Part shown: positions 52,149-61,788 of the stretch, in pieces | Layout: each line of letters opens with the position of its first letter | Position numbering within the stretch: position 1 is the first letter of the stretch | Source: a phage | Strand: one strand, 5' to 3' | DNA: 64,000 nucleotides | Sequence record: PX880103.1 | Translations under genes and position numbers: made by a program | Notes under the pieces: model-generated | What the model was told of the DNA's origin: nothing | The model's database searches: none | Seen by the model: only the letters and a program-made list of their open reading frames with translations

Positions 52149-52634
52149 TCAAGTATTGTAAAACATTTGATGCAATCGCTTATATTGCCGAATCTTTTGG
52201 TCAGAAAAAGAAATTTGAGTTTCAAGCCATTCAATGTACTCTGCGGCAGCTTGCATCAGGTTACCTTCATAGCCATCGTTATTTTCTTGTGCAGCTAATT
52301 TAGCTAATGCGTATGAAATGCGTTCACCTTGAAAATCGGCTTTAGGCTTCTGAACAACTTGATTAGTTCGCTCTACAACTTCTTCAATTTCGCCATTTTC
52401 GACTGATTCAGTATTCCACAAACACCAGTACGTAATTGGCTTATCGTAGATGTTAATAATCTTTCCGTCGGAAAGTTCAATTTCAATAATTCCAGTGTCA
52501 GGCTCTATATCATCTTCGCATTCTTTTGCAAGTTCACGAACTTTAAAGACAGTACCTGCACTAAGTTCTGGCCAGTAATTACACAGCCCTGTATCAACAC
52601 GATTAATTCTAAACCACTTATCTACTGTAATCAT
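52149..52634 (-). CDS. pin: Pin-like protein (inhibitor of host Lon protease in T4)
   Basis: 161 aa from ATG at 52634, the size and position of T4 pin; identity rests on synteny and size only. Confidence 0.55.
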   Translation of the reverse strand: MITVDKWFRINRVDTGLCNYWPELSAGTVFKVRELAKECEDDIEPDTGIIEIELSDGKIINIYDKPITYWCLWNTESVENGEIEEVVERTNQVVQKPKADFQGERISYALAKLAAQENNDGYEGNLMQAAAEYIEWLETQISFSDQKIRQYKRLHQMFYNT

Positions 52635-52757
52635 GTCCCATCTCCATATCAATTAAGTCATTTATCGTTGGTTCATTATATACTGTTTCTTCATCAGTGT
52701 AAACCGGTTCTTCCGGCTCTGGCTCTACAGTTTCCCATCTAGCCGCCCACCAAGGTT

Positions 52758-53739: not shown

Positions 53740-53982
53740 TTATTCCTTAATTCCTAGTACTTGTTTAAAAGTCTCATCGTAATCAAGACTTTGGCCCGTC
53801 TGTTCTTTATGTTTGTATATAATATCACTTACTTCTGATAGCATATTTTTATATGAACGAGTTAAAGCAGATTTAAGCACGCTGTATCTATCAGGAAATT
53901 TACCATGTTCATTATAATACGCTATTGCTAATTCACGGACTGCCTTTTCAGCAGTCTCCATATATTCTTTACGCTTTGTCAT
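53740..53982 (-). CDS. Hypothetical protein (about 80 aa, nrdC.1 position)
   Basis: Internal ATG at 53982 preferred; the track's 127-aa version overlaps the upstream zinc-ribbon ORF; start uncertain (alternative ATG at 53961). Confidence 0.4.
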
Positions 53983-54283
53983 TTTCTTCTCGGTCAAATC
54001 GGTGTTTACAATGGCGGCATTTATAACGAAGATTACTAGTCTGCCAATGGACCAATTGCACCTGTTCAGTTCCACATTCAGGGCAATTAGGAACGTTTTT
54101 AGAAGCACGTTCGCGACGTTCAACCATAACCATTACAGAATCCCAATTAACAGGAGGGCTATAATCATCACAACCATGAATCTTTCCACGCATTTCCAGA
54201 TCGTCTTCTTCACCAGCCATAATAATTTTAATTAGACTAGAATTACTTGAAGCTGCAATGTCTTCTAATAAACGCTTTTTCAT
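53969..54283 (-). CDS. Zinc-ribbon protein (104 aa)
   Basis: CPECGTEQ...17 aa...CRHCKH, TFIIS-like C4 ribbon; ATG confirmed. Confidence 0.55.
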
Positions 54284-55206
54284 TTCAATACCTCAATAGC
54301 ATTACGTAAACCATTTGCTTTGGCGGTTAAAGCCTTGAGAACTTTAGTATGCTCTTCAATTTGTTTTTCAACTTCAACCAAACGAGCATTGAGATATTCG
54401 CGTTCTTCTTTCATAGTATCATTCCCATGATTGGATTTTGGCGTAGGTTTAAATTCACTAGGGTCCTTTAACTTAATAACAAATTTAGTTTCAAACAGTG
54501 AAAGACCATAATTCGTATTATCATCAAAGGATTTGACTACATCCATATCAGATAATAACACGCGCAAATTATAAGCCAAAGAACTAATAGTTTCATTGTG
54601 TTTATTAGCTTCGCGGGGTTTCATATACGGAAGATTTTTATATATCTCGTGCGGAGCGCAAATTATAATTGACAATTCAAATTGCCCATTCTGGGACGAT
54701 GGAGTGAATTTAGCTGTAACCCAGTCTTTTACATTCACATTAATAGTACGGTTATCACCATGACAAAACAGTCTACGAGAATGCTTAAAAAGCATATTCA
54801 CGTTATTATTGAATTCGTGTGAAAATTCACTAGCAAATTTTTCTTTACTATCTTTAGAAAACCATTCTTCTAAATAAGTTCTTTTCACGTCGTTAATAAT
54901 ATTAAATGTAACAACACTAGCATTTGATACATTAGTCTCAATGTAGCTTGGATACATAAATTTTTTAACATTATTAACAGCTATCACAGAAGATAGTAAT
55001 CGGGAACGTTTGAACCACTCGAGCAAAGAACCAAGAGAATGTGAATACGCATTTTGTGTATCTTTACAAATATGGTTTTCCCATCCAATATAGTCTAAAA
55101 AATCACGAAGAATATTATTGATTACTGCTCTGTGTCCTATCTGATAATTACGATGTTTAGTAATAAGACTGTCAAAATAATCAATATAATGTTTACGAGT
55201 TTTCAT
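54280..55206 (-). CDS. Paralogue family member A (308 aa), C-terminal coiled coil
   Basis: N-terminus MKTRKHY...; C-terminus [41 protein letters not shown]; see finding. Confidence 0.6.
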   Translation of the reverse strand: MKTRKHYIDYFDSLITKHRNYQIGHRAVINNILRDFLDYIGWENHICKDTQNAYSHSLGSLLEWFKRSRLLSSVIAVNNVKKFMYPSYIETNVSNASVVTFNIINDVKRTYLEEWFSKDSKEKFASEFSHEFNNNVNMLFKHSRRLFCHGDNRTINVNVKDWVTAKFTPSSQNGQFELSIIICAPHEIYKNLPYMKPREANKHNETISSLAYNLRVLLSDMDVVKSFDDNTNYGLSLFETKFVIKLKDPSEFKPTPKSNHGNDTMKEEREYLNARLVEVEKQIEEHTKVLKALTAKANGLRNAIEVLK

Positions 55207-55257
55207 GTTCTTCTCACTTGTTAATGATTTATACTCCGAGCCATCCTTGGCTTTAAA

Positions 55258-56259
55258 TTACTTAATTAACTGTAAAGCTTGTTCAAGACGATCCAAGCGA
55301 TTAACAGATTCTTCCCAAATCCTTTTAGCCTGCTCATATTCTTTCTGCGCTTTATTAGAAATTTCTAGAACTTCTTTATAAGCTTTTTCTAGTGCAATAA
55401 CTTCTGGACGAATTTCTACCGATTCAGGTGAATCGTCAAGACATTCCATTAGTTCCTCAAGGGTAGTTTCTTCTTTAGGAGTATTCACAATTTCATCACA
55501 TTTTTGTTGATAAATTTCTTTATCAGTAGGTGAGTACGCGCACTTTACTTCACGAAGACTAATTACAATTTTATATCCTTCCCAACCGCATATATTCTTA
55601 AAAGGATATGTATGAATATTTTCTACTGTTTCCATACAAAGTAATGCGGTCTCTAATTGACGAGTTATAGTGCTAGCAATTGAGAAAAATTTATTAATAT
55701 TCTTTTGGTTAGTTTCTGGTGTAAAAAATCCATAATTCACAAAAATAGCTACTTTATTTTTATCAAGCTCATATTCTTTTATGATAATCATATCAGAAGC
55801 CAAAGGATGAATTTGACGATAATCGCCATAACATAATTTAGAAGCTGATTTTAGAATTTGCTTCTTAAAAAGTCTGAAATTACTAATCCAACGACGAGTA
55901 AAAATATTCTCAGGGTCTTCTTTGACATTAAGATGATAAGAATTAACATCACCGAACCAATTATATCCTACTACATCTTTGGTTCGTTTAATTTCTTTCC
56001 CAAAATTACCAAGAATATCCCGATTAACCAAATATGAAAGAAGACGAGACTCTTTAAAGGTTTTCTTGATATTATCTTTATCTACACGGCTAGAAATTTT
56101 ACGAATTTCATGAATAAATTTAGCAGAAGAAACAATACCTGCATCAACACTATTGAGCCATTGATTGATAATAGAAAGAACGCTATTTTGGCCAAACATC
56201 GGTATAGCTTTATCATCAATAACGCTATTGAATGATTTGATATATTCGTTACGAGTCAT
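55258..56259 (-). CDS. Paralogue family member B (333 aa), C-terminal coiled coil
   Basis: ATG at 56259 with GAGGAG SD after the 56288-56317 promoter (track N-terminus is the promoter translated); contains FRLFKKQILKSASKL. Confidence 0.6.
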   Translation of the reverse strand: MTRNEYIKSFNSVIDDKAIPMFGQNSVLSIINQWLNSVDAGIVSSAKFIHEIRKISSRVDKDNIKKTFKESRLLSYLVNRDILGNFGKEIKRTKDVVGYNWFGDVNSYHLNVKEDPENIFTRRWISNFRLFKKQILKSASKLCYGDYRQIHPLASDMIIIKEYELDKNKVAIFVNYGFFTPETNQKNINKFFSIASTITRQLETALLCMETVENIHTYPFKNICGWEGYKIVISLREVKCAYSPTDKEIYQQKCDEIVNTPKEETTLEELMECLDDSPESVEIRPEVIALEKAYKEVLEISNKAQKEYEQAKRIWEESVNRLDRLEQALQLIK

Positions 56260-56287
56260 AATAATCTCCTCAGTAGAAAGTAAGAAC

Positions 56288-56317
56288 ATTATACCACATC
56301 CTTGTGGCAAAGTAAAC
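56288..56317 (-). promoter_or_regulatory. Early promoter (GTTTAC-N18-TATAAT) for paralogue B
   Basis: Minus strand GTTTACtttgccacaaggatgtggTATAAT; nearly identical to the rIIA.1 promoter. Confidence 0.65.
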
Positions 56318-57336
56318 TAGTTCAGTGCATTTAGTGCATTGTTCAGTTTAGAACGTTGCTTTGTCAGATTTTGAACCCTTGACTGAGCTTGTTCTAACAC
56401 CTTTTCAGCTTCTAGCACTTCATTGGTCGCTTTAATGAGTTCAGCATCTACTGCCTTAAGAGACTTCTCAATCGCGTCAGCGTGCCATTTTTCTACAGGT
56501 TTAAAATTTGAATTTTCAGTAGGAAGAAAACTCACTTTATTAAGTTTACATGCATCTATATTGCTTGAGCTATACATCCAAAATTTAGGATCGTTTGATG
56601 AGTAATTGGATAAATTTAAGATATCTTGCACTTCCTGCTTTTTCTCTCGCGGGACTTCGTCCTTTCTCAAAAAATCGTATTTAAATGAAACGATCATATC
56701 AAGTTCATATGTTGTTGTGTCTAATTTAAATCGCTCAAAACGAGGTAAAATCTTAGACTGAACAGCGGCAACAACATCCATATACTTAAATGCTTCTGTC
56801 AACTGCGATTTAAGGCATTCGCAAATTGAAAGAGAATTTTTTGTATTAGGTTTAAAGCTAATTCGTGCAGTTCTGTTATTTTCTTTTAATGGTCTTACTT
56901 CCATCTGAAGAGTATAACCATCAAATTTCAGATTCTTTAAGTTAATATCAGAACCTTTTAATCGACTAGCCGTCGACAAAATTTGCTTTAATTGTTTACG
57001 GAATAGAGCAATAAATCTCCATTCAATACGATAATGATTTGGATTGAAAAATCCAGATGATAAATCGACCTTACTCTGACCAACACCTTGAACAAATAGA
57101 GGATTTTTATAATCAATAGTTTTACAGAAATCAACGAGCTGCTCACGAGCCGTCATTTGTGTAATATACCCTGCTTCGTTAAAATGACGTAACCATTCAC
57201 TGCTATTCATATACTTAAAGTGAATGGAACTATTAACTCTATCAGGGTCTAAATTATTTTCACACAAAAATGTCATAACATCACGAGTATAACTGGCATT
57301 ACGAACCATATCTTCAATTTGAGAACGAGTTTTCAT
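56317..57336 (-). CDS. Paralogue family member C (339 aa), C-terminal coiled coil
   Basis: N-terminus MKTRSQ...; contains FRKQLKQILSTASRLKG; C-terminus LEAEKVLEQAQSRVQNLTKQRSKLNNALNALN. Confidence 0.6.
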   Translation of the reverse strand: MKTRSQIEDMVRNASYTRDVMTFLCENNLDPDRVNSSIHFKYMNSSEWLRHFNEAGYITQMTAREQLVDFCKTIDYKNPLFVQGVGQSKVDLSSGFFNPNHYRIEWRFIALFRKQLKQILSTASRLKGSDINLKNLKFDGYTLQMEVRPLKENNRTARISFKPNTKNSLSICECLKSQLTEAFKYMDVVAAVQSKILPRFERFKLDTTTYELDMIVSFKYDFLRKDEVPREKKQEVQDILNLSNYSSNDPKFWMYSSSNIDACKLNKVSFLPTENSNFKPVEKWHADAIEKSLKAVDAELIKATNEVLEAEKVLEQAQSRVQNLTKQRSKLNNALNALN

Positions 57337-57344
57337 GGTGTTCC

Positions 57345-58259
57345 TTAAGATTTAAGTAAATCAACAATTTTAATTAACTTTTCACGCTCAGATTTAGCTT
57401 TACTACTCAGTCCAGATAGTCTGAAAATTTCATCATCATATTGCTGAATAGAAATATTCAGCTCTTCAATCTGCTTATTAAAATAATCAATTTGTTCAGA
57501 ATGTTTTTCGTTACTACGAAATGGTACAGGTTTTGTAGGCAATTTAGTTAAACTGGATTCATCCGGGCGATAAATTAAAATACAATTTGAACCAATCGGG
57601 CATTTTGCCCCAGATGAATATTCTAATGTTCCAGCTTCTTTTAAAATTTCAAAAGCTAAACAGAGATGATGCCCCATATTAACATAATCTGTAGAGTGAG
57701 CTCTGACGTAATAATCATCTCCACGAGTGCTAAATTTAAAGCATTTAAGGTCTTCTGTATTATTGGTCTTAAAAATCATTTGTTTATCTAGACCTTTAGC
57801 TAATCGAGCGCCTAATGCTAATAATCGTCGTTGATTTTCCCACAAATCCGCAATCATTTGATCGAATGATAATTTCGGCATTAGTCGACCATAAAGGTCA
57901 TATCCTTTATTATAATTGCGAAGGATTTCACTCGCATTAATACGAGACAACGCTCCAATTTTATTAAGGGCTTTCATGATGCGATTAGATAAACTCATTC
58001 CAGACCCATTTGTTCGCTGTAAATGTTTTTCTAATCCAAATCCAATATCAACTTTAAATTTATCTAAAATTTTGGCATGAACATCTCTGTCAATAACATT
58101 CAAATCCAAAGTTGGGTTAAATCTATGAAAAAATTTATCTGGCTCTCCACGACGAAGTACAGTCCATTCATTCATCATTTTTTTATTAACTAAGGATTTA
58201 ATTACTGCATTGACATTATTAATTACTACTGACATATTTTCCTCACTCAATTTTACCAA
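57345..58259 (-). CDS. Paralogue family member D (304 aa), C-terminal coiled coil
   Basis: Contains LALGARLAKGLDKQ; C-terminus QIEELNISIQQYDDEIFRLSGLSSKAKSEREKLIKIVDLLKS. Confidence 0.6.
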   Translation of the reverse strand: MVKLSEENMSVVINNVNAVIKSLVNKKMMNEWTVLRRGEPDKFFHRFNPTLDLNVIDRDVHAKILDKFKVDIGFGLEKHLQRTNGSGMSLSNRIMKALNKIGALSRINASEILRNYNKGYDLYGRLMPKLSFDQMIADLWENQRRLLALGARLAKGLDKQMIFKTNNTEDLKCFKFSTRGDDYYVRAHSTDYVNMGHHLCLAFEILKEAGTLEYSSGAKCPIGSNCILIYRPDESSLTKLPTKPVPFRSNEKHSEQIDYFNKQIEELNISIQQYDDEIFRLSGLSSKAKSEREKLIKIVDLLKS

Positions 58260-59227: not shown

Positions 59228-59255
59228 TTTGTGTTCCTCCGTAGTTGATAGTTGT

Positions 59256-59285
59256 ATAGTACCACAGAGGAACGGTCTTGTAAAC
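59256..59285 (-). promoter_or_regulatory. Early promoter cassette (GTTTAC-N18-TACTAT plus conserved leader)
   Basis: Minus-strand GTTTAC at 59280-59285 and TACTAT at 59256-59261. Confidence 0.65.
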
Positions 59286-59287
59286 AA

Positions 59288-59602
59288 CTAAAAGAAACTT
59301 CTTTCACAATTTTTTCCACTGAACCACGCGCTCACTGCTTTCTTAGTCTCAGGAGCAGTGTTATCCATAAACCATTCAAAAGCAGCCTTTTTATGATTCT
59401 GGAGGGCTTCTCGGGCTTTAATCTGCTCACGGTCTATTAACACTAACATATGAGCCTTTCTTGTCACCAGGGGCTTCTTATGATTTTTTGAATACTCCCA
59501 ATCATTTGTCCATCGCATCGTTGTTGCGAATTGAAGTACAGCTTCTTTAATCTTAGTTTCGTAAATTTCACGAGCCTTTGAGTATAACATCATTACCTCC
59601 AT
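59288..59602 (-). CDS. Hypothetical protein (104 aa)
   Basis: ORF track; its 3' end runs into the promoter cassette. Confidence 0.45.
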   Translation of the reverse strand: MEVMMLYSKAREIYETKIKEAVLQFATTMRWTNDWEYSKNHKKPLVTRKAHMLVLIDREQIKAREALQNHKKAAFEWFMDNTAPETKKAVSAWFSGKNCERSFF

Positions 59603-59691: not shown

Positions 59692-60660
59692 TTATTTCAG
59701 AAGAGTAACCTCAGCAATTTCTTCCCAACCGTTTTTGTCGGTCATAATAAAGTCAGCAAGATAAAGAGCGGTACGCAGTGAAACATTGCGTAAACGGTTA
59801 ACATTGACTTTCATCCATGATAATGCTTTATAAGTTTCTTCATCAGAAAGACCGCGCTTTTGCATCATGTCGGTTGAAAGAATAACATCTTCAACCCTGA
59901 CCATAATTTCTTCATTAGTGTGAACACCCAAATCTAAATAAACTGAGCGGGACACTAATGCTTGTAAATGTGGAGCAAGTTTAGTACCACGGTCTAATTC
60001 GCGGTCAATATCAACGTTTGTGATAAAAACAATTGTTCCTTTAAATTCAAACTCACGATCAATGCCTTTTTCTTCTAAGTAAGAAGATGCAGTGCTCCAG
60101 CAGACTTTACGGGTCTCTCCAGTGTCCAGAGCAGCTTTCAGAAGATTAAGAATGTCCATATCAGAAAAAACATCCACATCATCAATCAAAAGGACAGAAT
60201 TCTCTTCACGATTATTCCAAAGCTGCTCATAAAGACCGATACCAGAGATTTTACCATTAATGCTTTTATACTCAATGTATCCAATATCATTTGCTTTATT
60301 CAAAGCTTTATCTAAAGAATACGTTTTACCAATACCCGCCGCACCAGAGATAATTAATGAACGAATATTTCCGTTAATAATACCATTCGTCATCATTCCC
60401 ATAACATTAAATCTTTTATTAATGCGGGTTTTCATATCTTCATATGATTCTTTAACTTCTTCAACTTTTACACCATCATATGAAATGTCTGATTTATAAA
60501 CCCAAACACCGCGACGTTTACCATCAATTTCAACAAAAACTTTACCGTCTCCTTGTGCATCTACCGGAGCATTATCTGGGAACCATTCGCCTAAGAGTTC
60601 AAAGGTTCCAGAGATTTCTTTACCGAAGTAGATACCCTTATTGATAGTTACAGTTTTCAT
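59692..60660 (-). CDS. P-loop ATPase (322 aa; Walker A GAAGIGKT, Walker B LLIDDVD)
   Basis: ATG at 60660 after leader GGAGAATAAA (MKTVTINKG...); the track N-terminus is the translated cassette. Confidence 0.6.
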   Translation of the reverse strand: MKTVTINKGIYFGKEISGTFELLGEWFPDNAPVDAQGDGKVFVEIDGKRRGVWVYKSDISYDGVKVEEVKESYEDMKTRINKRFNVMGMMTNGIINGNIRSLIISGAAGIGKTYSLDKALNKANDIGYIEYKSINGKISGIGLYEQLWNNREENSVLLIDDVDVFSDMDILNLLKAALDTGETRKVCWSTASSYLEEKGIDREFEFKGTIVFITNVDIDRELDRGTKLAPHLQALVSRSVYLDLGVHTNEEIMVRVEDVILSTDMMQKRGLSDEETYKALSWMKVNVNRLRNVSLRTALYLADFIMTDKNGWEEIAEVTLLK

Positions 60661-60694
60661 TTTATTCTCCAAATCCGTATCAGTTGATAGTTGT

Positions 60695-60724
60695 ATAGTA
60701 CCATAAAGCTTTATGCTTGTAAAC
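60695..60724 (-). promoter_or_regulatory. Early promoter cassette (GTTTAC-N18-TACTAT plus conserved leader) for the ATPase gene
   Basis: Minus-strand GTTTAC at 60719-60724 and TACTAT at 60695-60700. Confidence 0.65.
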
Positions 60725-60754
60725 AACTTTGTGAAAAATTTTTGAAATAAAAAA

Positions 60755-60774: not shown

Positions 60775-61788
60775 TCATTTATAATAACTTCGATGGTTTT
60801 CAAGATAGACCTTCTCAAGGAAGTCATCCCAGAAACTCATGTCTACTTTTTGCTGCATACCGTTCTTAGAAGCTTCAGTAGATGCTGCTTCTACTTGATC
60901 GACCACATCTTCCAAAAACTCTTGAACCGTTTTAAATGGATGTTTACCCAACTTCACGTCGAGAATAAATGGAGCATCTTGGAGTGGATAAATCAAGTCG
61001 CCAGTTTTGTAAATTTCCAATAGTTGGAGTCCACCACGACAAGCATGGCTCAGAGCTTTCCAGTCAATACCTTCGTTGGCTTCGGCCTTACGAGCACGTT
61101 CACCATATTCAGCATCTAATTTGTTCAGTGACTGCTTAAGCTCAATAAGAGAAAGCGTTGTCTGATATTTACGACCCAACACAGTGTAGAACGTTTGTGG
61201 GCCTGTTTTCTCATGATTATGGAACACCCATTCACAGAATTCGTTTTCTGGAAGACGATGCTTAATATCTTCAACTTTAGTGCGACGCTGCTTAATAGAA
61301 CCATCTTCTTGGTAATCAACCCATTGCTCAGGGATTTGATTAACTACTTTCAATACATCACGTAATGCAGCCAAACGAGAACCCTTGACACCGTATTTAG
61401 AAGCTTGCTTGCGGACATATCCTAAATATGATTTCATGTTAGTCGTATAAAAACGAGAACGGTTGTCTTGAATAAACTTCCACACATCAGGCAAATCAGA
61501 TTTAACCACTAGTTCAGGTGGAGTGTGAAGCATATCTAATGCTACGGTTTCACCATCTGCTGCTAATTTAAAGAAATATTTAAGACTGTATAGTTCATGG
61601 TCAATATCATCTTTAGTGTTTTTAGATGATGTGTTGTTAGTGTTTTTACTCATGTGCTCTTTGACATTTCCGATAAGAATATCACGAGCAGGAGGAACAA
61701 AAATTTCTTTAAAATCTACATCAGATTCTGGGGTAGAAGTTCCATAAAGATGACTACCAAAATAGCTTTTCATTACTGTTTTCATCAT
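60775..61788 (-). CDS. Nucleotidyltransferase-fold protein (337 aa)
   Basis: N-terminal FGSHLYGTSTPESDVDF fits the GS-x(9-13)-DxD signature of the Pol-beta nucleotidyltransferase superfamily. Confidence 0.55.
   Translation of the reverse strand: MMKTVMKSYFGSHLYGTSTPESDVDFKEIFVPPARDILIGNVKEHMSKNTNNTSSKNTKDDIDHELYSLKYFFKLAADGETVALDMLHTPPELVVKSDLPDVWKFIQDNRSRFYTTNMKSYLGYVRKQASKYGVKGSRLAALRDVLKVVNQIPEQWVDYQEDGSIKQRRTKVEDIKHRLPENEFCEWVFHNHEKTGPQTFYTVLGRKYQTTLSLIELKQSLNKLDAEYGERARKAEANEGIDWKALSHACRGGLQLLEIYKTGDLIYPLQDAPFILDVKLGKHPFKTVQEFLEDVVDQVEAASTEASKNGMQQKVDMSFWDDFLEKVYLENHRSYYK

Follow-up and report, generated by a model that had tools for sequence, protein, structure and literature searches.

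What do the four large genes that stand side by side on the minus strand at positions 54280-58259 of phage sequence record PX880103.1 contribute to the phage, and are they related to one another? A preliminary description of the 64,000 nucleotides analysed here (hereafter the window) had presented them as a tandem array of divergent paralogues, had guessed that they are host-takeover or anti-defence effectors, and had called them the least explained large block of the window. The source phage is a Tequatrovirus, and the 3,980 base pair (bp) block is 96% identical at the nucleotide level to T2 and 95% to T4; it is covered to at least 80% in 462 of the 507 matching phage records. Comparison with the T4 nrdC.x genes, which had been proposed at the outset, identifies the array as nrdC.3, nrdC.4, nrdC.5 and nrdC.6 (members A, B, C and D below), names that are taken from the T2 and T4 records; the products are 92%, 97%, 92% and 97% identical, respectively, to the T4 proteins. 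The block is thus less obscure than it had seemed, since names, three Pfam families (PF23882, PF26897 and PF26899) and one published function exist. It appears probable to us, if far from certain, that nrdC.3-nrdC.6 constitute one fast-diverging family whose members, dispensable, non-enzymatic and about 300-340 amino acids long, serve as stoichiometric inhibitors of host immune proteins.

The four minus-strand open reading frames (ORFs) are real genes, each with hundreds of orthologues and under net purifying selection. They run head to tail as described, with intergenic gaps of 51, 57 and 8 bp:

54280..55206, minus strand: member A, nrdC.3, 308 amino acids (ORF; phrog_1435, E 3e-101)
55258..56259, minus strand: member B, nrdC.4, 333 amino acids from the ATG of MTRNEY (ORF; phrog_1435, E 7e-168)
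56317..57336, minus strand: member C, nrdC.5, 339 amino acids (ORF; DUF7235/PF23882, phrog_2351)
57345..58235, minus strand: member D, nrdC.6, 296 amino acids (ATG after a GAGG ribosome-binding site; phrog_2257; homologues with PF26899)

The 304 codons first assigned to D need correction. They correspond to the longest ORF reading, 57345-58259, which begins at a TTG overlapping nrdC.7, and the phrog_2257 match starts at residue 9 of that reading. Because the ribosome-binding site precedes the ATG at 58235 and the homologues of D are 296 amino acids long, the shorter protein is adopted here.

The member for which a function has been published is C. Judged by its identity (92% to AAD42636, a difference at 8% of residues), its position, which in T4 and T2 too is between nrdC.4 and nrdC.6, and its full-length match to PF23882 (375.3 bits, E 3.5e-112; gathering score 30 bits), C is the orthologue of the T4 anti-Dsr1 protein NrdC.5. 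A and B are remote homologues of this protein and D is probably one; unlike it, they belong to PF26897/phrog_1435 or PF26899/phrog_2257, A reaching 13.9 bits against PF23882, below the threshold and in the tail only, and B and D giving no match. Homologues of B carry PF26897. Dsr1 is a SIR2 NADase of the sirtuin type of defence. When T4 was evolved on toxIN cells, a clone with compensatory deletions arose that no longer infected ECOR17, and infection was regained upon deletion of dsr1 in that strain; dsr1 from ECOR17 on a plasmid shields MG1655 against the deletion clone, and expression of nrdC.5, which the authors call an early gene, restores infectivity (Srikant et al., eLife 2022; PMC9391042). 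This neutralisation in trans was shown for NrdC.5 of T4 only (PMC9391042). According to a 2026 preprint, the major capsid protein triggers a TPR sensor domain common to E. coli Dsr1 and Avs7 (PMC12803255). The early guess of an anti-defence role therefore holds for one member, as T4 nrdC.5 overcomes Dsr1 (PMC9391042) and C is 92% identical to its product. For the other three we infer it from their homology and common architecture, from the fact that they are dispensable and diverge rapidly, from their changing copy number and from the genes around them; our literature search found no paper giving a function to nrdC.3, nrdC.4 or nrdC.6, PMC9391042 being the only one to do so for any of the four.

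Homology is the first of these arguments. Pairwise BLASTP among the four proteins detected A-B alone, at E 0.001, and being too insensitive it was replaced by profile comparison: family alignments were built from database homologues, enriched with diverged copies from other genera, and compared profile against profile with hhalign. A first run on shallow profiles gave B-C alone (P 0.004), which improved once the diverged homologues were added. A and B are now aligned at E 2e-13 over 209-230 columns, and the hidden Markov model (HMM) of the B family matches A at E 1e-15; B and C are aligned at E 2e-5 over 230 colinear columns, nearly their full length, and A and C at E 3e-8 over the C-terminal 63 columns only. 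The single-copy homologue that occupies the same genomic position in Jiaodavirus (Klebsiella phages JD18 and Mineola, where Mineola gp080 is 43% identical to JD18 gp070) matches C at E 4e-7, B at 2.5e-5 and A and B together at 2.4e-7. The negative controls, unrelated ORFs nearby, came out at P 0.05-0.7. Homology of A, B and C, bridged by the Jiaodavirus protein, is well supported by these profile alignments. An exhaustive search with A found only 4 cluster representatives, so a deep alignment of this member was impossible. When the C HMM appeared to match a variant of nrdC.3 (E 2e-8), the alignment proved gapped and non-colinear and was discarded as an artefact.

The four proteins also appear to share an architecture: a conserved core made up of two motifs in an N-terminal helical region and a ββαββ domain, patches that vary, and a conserved heptad helix at the C-terminus. 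The internal motif noticed in the preliminary description (motif 2 here) is aligned by profile methods in all four, as FSHEFNNNVNMLFKHSRRLFCHGDNRT in A, WISNFRLFKKQILKSASKLCYGDYRQ in B, WRFIALFRKQLKQILSTASRLKGSDINL in C and MIADLWENQRRLLALGARLAKGLDKQ in D, and upstream of it lies another, motif 1, of the form F(K)xSRLLS...A..IL.NF, again in all four. The charged N-terminus had likewise been ascribed to the whole array; its pattern, M(K)TRxxYIxxF, is found in A, B and C, and D lacks it. LxxM(D/E)VV, in a helix of the predicted β-domain, occurs in A, B, C and the Jiaodavirus homologue, and a tail end of the form [AI][LIV]xxL[KN] is common to the four. Of the heptad-like tails reported for every member, those of A and C (both p<0.0005, last 49 residues against 2000 shuffles) and of D (p=0.0065) are borne out, and that of B is weak (p=0.17); leucine, isoleucine, valine or methionine fills 0.64-0.71 of the a and d positions of these 49 residues in A, C and D and 0.50 in B. 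The elements are placed as follows, with the predicted local distance difference test (pLDDT) score given for modelled domains:

57121..57183, minus strand: motif 1 of C, FNEAGYITQMTAREQLVDFCK, residues 52-72 (hhalign alignments)
54952-55014, 55996-56058 and 57906-57968, minus strand: motif 1 equivalents in A, B and D (hhalign)
56938..57021, minus strand: motif 2 of C, residues 106-133 (hhalign B-C, merged family-D and C-D; nearly invariant within Tequatrovirus)
54745-54825, 55813-55890 and 57780-57857, minus strand: motif 2 equivalents in A, B and D (hhalign)
56683..56910, minus strand: predicted β-β-α-β-β domain of C, residues 143-218 (AlphaFold2, pLDDT 60-80)
57570-57740, minus strand: predicted β-β-α-β-β domain of D, residues 166-222 (AlphaFold2, pLDDT 65-91)
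56320..56499, minus strand: C-terminal heptad helix of C, residues 280-339 (AlphaFold2 helix 280-338, heptad test, A-C tail alignment)
54283-54429, 55261-55407 and 57348-57509, minus strand: C-terminal helix equivalents in A, B and D (heptad test; a helical hairpin in the D model)

The AlphaFold2 model of D has a pLDDT of 76.8 and a predicted template modelling score of 0.65, with helices at 243-272 and 278-295. Both it and the model of C (pLDDT 50.7) show the same order of a helical N-terminal region, the ββαββ domain, a low-confidence linker and a long C-terminal helix. The C model is poor because the alignment behind it is shallow, and the case for a shared fold is consequently built on the good model of D together with this order of secondary structure. 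Foldseek of the D model against predicted viral structures returns full-length matches to uncharacterised Straboviridae proteins of 304-335 amino acids (E 1e-6 to 3e-3, 11-17% identity) from phages of Pectobacterium, Enterobacter, Acinetobacter, Yersinia, Klebsiella and Citrobacter. The Mineola homologue A0A2Z4QAR2 is matched by D over 344 columns (E 1.5e-3, probability 1.0) and is the top match of the C model as well (E 1.5e-4). Matches of the C model to tail-completion and tail-terminator proteins (E 2e-3 to 2e-2) were treated as unreliable, the model being poor.

Whether D belongs to the family is the point at which the claim of four divergent paralogues is weakest. By sequence its homology to A, B and C is marginal. 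It is conceivable that nrdC.6 is no paralogue at all, only an unrelated gene of similar size with a coiled-coil tail: in pairwise profile comparison with A, B, C or the Jiaodavirus family it reaches just P 0.006-0.25, neither the M(K)TR motif at the N-terminus nor the MDVV motif is present in it, and in Pfam and PHROGs it is a family of its own. Against a merged A/B/C/Jiaodavirus profile, however, D is aligned over 82 columns (P 1.3e-3 to 3.2e-3), and the two motifs fall into register there and follow in order; the score of 29.0 is reached by none of 100 window-restricted column shuffles (14.7 ± 2.9), and a reversed control gives P 0.4. In the models the order of secondary-structure elements in D is that of C, and the D model matches the Mineola homologue of B and C along with the other Straboviridae proteins of 304-335 amino acids; moreover D always stands at the head of the array. 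We therefore think it unlikely that nrdC.6 is unrelated, and the description of four paralogues stands firmly for A, B and C (E 2e-13 to 2e-5) and with the said reservation for D.

Databases have kept these proteins apart, with A and B in phrog_1435, C in phrog_2351 and D in phrog_2257, and with Pfam PF26897 for B, PF23882 for C and PF26899 for D. The present comparisons are new evidence for joining the three Pfam families and several PHROGs in one proposed superfamily with NrdC.5; we found no literature describing nrdC.3-nrdC.6 as one family. Since no DNA-level repeats were found among the four genes, the duplications must be old.

The array varies in copy number among related phages:

Tequatrovirus: D-C-B-A, four members
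Dhakavirus-like phages and related contigs: D-C'-B, three members
Mosigvirus LF82-35: D'-C'-A-type, three members
Jiaodavirus and Gelderlandvirus: one member, adjoining an nrdC.2-like gene

No member was found in the 10 kb downstream of nrdC.11 in Slopekvirus and Pseudotevenvirus. Directly upstream of the single-copy member lies a conserved ORF of about 260 codons (JD18 gp071, 15140-15928 of contig L001, and CGG4-1 gp079, 14418-15200 of contig L017, in Jiaodavirus and Gelderlandvirus), which is unrelated to the NrdC.3-6 family (P 0.2-0.5). Between genera the identity of C falls to 21-27% and that of B and D to 42-50%, against 76-85% for nrdC.11. Within Tequatrovirus the pairwise ratio of nonsynonymous to synonymous substitution rates (dN/dS) is 0.10-0.33 for the four genes and 0.00-0.08 for nrdC.11, nrdC.10, nrdC.8, nrdC and gene 49, so that the array runs at three to ten times the value of the flanking genes, and in C the variation falls mainly within residues 20-60 and 180-280, the motif region and the first half of the β-domain being almost invariant. 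The host-driven diversifying selection that had been supposed does not follow: the genes change faster than their neighbours, yet a gene-wide ratio of 0.10-0.33 is net purifying. Two deep allele classes of nrdC.3 exist, with 138 records at least 90% identical to the type of the window and 322 at 60-80%, and with a synonymous divergence (dS) of about 0.9 between the types; because the commoner type resembles the Mosigvirus gene, the sequences suggest allele exchange between genera. Fusion or recombination between members of the array may have given rise to two further proteins: P0121 of Shigella phage Sf25, an NrdC.6 homologue with an extension (378 amino acids versus 296), and P0056 (299 amino acids), in which PF26897 is present although 37% of NrdC.5 is matched at 92% identity.

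On laboratory hosts the phage can do without the four genes. In the HIDEN-SEQ data, T4 insertions are tolerated at 96-100% of sites in them on a laboratory host, and nrdC.1-6 can be deleted (PMC9825161). Gene 49.2 of T4 inhibits OLD (PMC13096335) and nrdC.1 inhibits Septu (bioRxiv 2025.11.20.689424). In the window an orthologue of gp49.2 lies in the 49.1-49.3 region (52149-52652) and one of NrdC.1 at 53740-54123, and because of these anti-OLD and anti-Septu neighbours the whole stretch from gene 49 to nrdC.11 looks like a counter-defence island. As with 49.2, nrdC.1, tifA, dmd, adfA and ipI-III of T4, the genes of the array are dispensable on laboratory hosts, probably early, fast evolving and clustered, and they too may be lost or amplified by recombination between short repeats. 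Unlike most of those T4 genes, which are small and single-copy, the array consists of three or four large paralogues in tandem, each about 300-340 amino acids long, which have a scaffold and a coil in common.

Other features of the neighbourhood are recorded for completeness. The product of nrdC.2 (53969-54283, 104 amino acids, overlapping the array start by 4 bp) has CPEC...CRHC cysteine pairs and is zinc-ribbon-like. On the other side, nrdC.10 (59692-60726) gives weak, sub-threshold matches to AAA/STAND-type ATPase families and nrdC.11 (60775-61788) matches the nucleotidyltransferase family of RlaP, of an RNA-repair pathway; across Straboviridae the conservation of both (76-85% identity between genera) far exceeds that of the array. 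Upstream of nrdC.8 and nrdC.10 there is a direct repeat of about 62 bp (59243-59304 and 60682-60743, 1439 bp apart; 27 nucleotides at 93% and 28 at 75% identity), each copy with a TTTACA-17-TACTAT promoter-like site with TG extension. T4 gains segmental amplifications by recombination, with compensatory deletions (PMC9391042), and short repeats of this kind could plausibly act as substrates.

The promoters assigned to B and A in the preliminary description are present in the sequence at 56317-56288 and 55257-55227:

56288..56317, minus strand: T4 early-type promoter sequence GTTTAC-N18-(TG)TATAAT upstream of nrdC.4 (sequence and promoter scan; putative function from the consensus)
55227..55257, minus strand: weaker promoter-like TTTAAA-N18-TATAAAT upstream of nrdC.3 (sequence; not reported by the consensus scan)

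Because promoter-like sites overall are no commoner than in shuffled sequence (42 found versus 37.9 expected), both assignments rest on sequence and position alone. The intergenic regions 55207-55257 and 56260-56316 have the same layout of a -35-like hexamer, CCA(C)AAGGATG and a -10 element, and this likeness suggests that a promoter was duplicated together with its gene. The -10 element of nrdC.3 (TATAAAT) also resembles the core of a T4 late promoter. Lying 7-8 bp after the preceding genes, nrdC.5 and nrdC.6 are presumably co-transcribed with nrdC.7.

How might such proteins work? The statement that no catalytic motif is recognisable agrees with searches of Pfam, NCBIfam and PADLOC, none of which yielded an enzyme family; nucleotide- or NAD-metabolism domains were among those absent from the Pfam and NCBIfam results, and NCBIfam and PADLOC gave no significant match at all. 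A search of PDB sequences gave no related chain, so the fold of the N-terminal region and β-domain has no detectable solved counterpart. A model is offered by DSAD1, the SPbeta-type phage inhibitor of DSR2, a sirtuin NADase. No sequence or fold similarity to DSAD1 was found; the likeness is that in both cases a phage protein faces a sirtuin NADase that acts in defence and detects a virion protein through its C-terminal sensor, and it serves as a working model for NrdC.5. The likeliest target of NrdC.5 would then be the TPR sensor domain by which Dsr1 recognises the major capsid protein. Early in infection, before the late capsid trigger appears, stoichiometric binding of NrdC.5 would prevent that trigger from being recognised, as DSAD1 does with DSR2, and would keep the NADase off. 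Each paralogue might have its own host defence sensor, or its own allele of such a sensor, as binding partner, with specificity coming from the variable N-terminal and linker regions; the C-terminal coil may form dimers and give avidity against oligomeric defence proteins, and the copy number of one, three or four could shift with the defence repertoire of the host. Every step of this mechanism is conjectural. A bolder version, which we put forward as speculation and consider rather improbable, is that of a modular inhibitor cassette: a constant scaffold and dimerising coil would present variable surfaces, each paralogue would block a different clade of capsid- or virion-sensing receptors (e.g., different Dsr1 or Avs7-type TPR sensors), and the array would follow the sensor repertoire of the host by duplicating in tandem, exchanging alleles between genera and losing genes.

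Several points weigh against a family of immune inhibitors. The experimental link to defence concerns NrdC.5 alone, whose mode of action, whether direct binding or other, was not found in the searchable literature, and there is no known phenotype for nrdC.3, nrdC.4 or nrdC.6, which in one comparison of the HIDEN-SEQ supplement are without significant change. The gene-wide dN/dS is below 1 and an arms race is not demonstrated. The sequence homology of D is only marginal and the AlphaFold2 model of C is poor, and the oligomerisation of the coil as well as the division into specificity and constant modules are suppositions of ours.

One rival reading is that NrdC.5 alone is a counter-defence protein and that nrdC.3, nrdC.4 and nrdC.6 have diverged after duplication and now serve other ends, for instance host takeover, or are losing their function. 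Rescue against Dsr1 is reported for nrdC.5 alone, the transposon data considered here show no phenotype, and frameshifted copies occur in some deposited genomes: nrdC.4 in one IMG/VR genome (9929-10982 of L006), nrdC.4 and nrdC.6 in T2 record LC348380 (2482-3421 and 4569-5402), and nrdC.6 in the T4 reference AF158101.6 (3267-4094), where 275 amino acids are annotated and the coil is lost. These copies may be pseudogenes or sequencing errors, the latter because another T4 annotation has the full nrdC.6 of 891 nucleotides. All four genes are intact in hundreds of genomes with dN/dS of 0.10-0.33, moreover, and an array of three members is retained in Mosigvirus and Dhakavirus-like phages, for which reasons we regard a role limited to NrdC.5 as doubtful. 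Quite improbable is an indirect action of NrdC.5 without Dsr1 binding (by NAD+ restoration, masking or delaying of the capsid trigger, or changed host physiology), for even though binding data were not found in the literature and other phages escape NAD+-depleting systems, including DSR1, via NAD+ reconstitution pathways, no enzyme-family match was obtained in Pfam or NCBIfam, the NAD-pathway enzyme domains of NARP1/2 included, and a conserved coil with variable surface patches fits a binding protein better than an enzyme.

A family of immune inhibitors thus remains our preferred reading of nrdC.3-nrdC.6, and we regard it as moderately interesting rather than surprising, the anti-defence role of the three further genes being a reasonable and testable prediction. 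Although no virulent phage has been studied better than T4, only one functional data point exists for these roughly 4 kb of its genome. If NrdC.3, NrdC.4 and NrdC.6 do belong to the anti-Dsr1 family, three large T4 ORFans would be concrete candidates for experiments of one defined class, the natural series of related inhibitors would offer a way to learn how the specificity for immune sensors is encoded, and the copy number of the array together with the allele classes of nrdC.3 could mark host-range differences among therapeutic T4-like phages.

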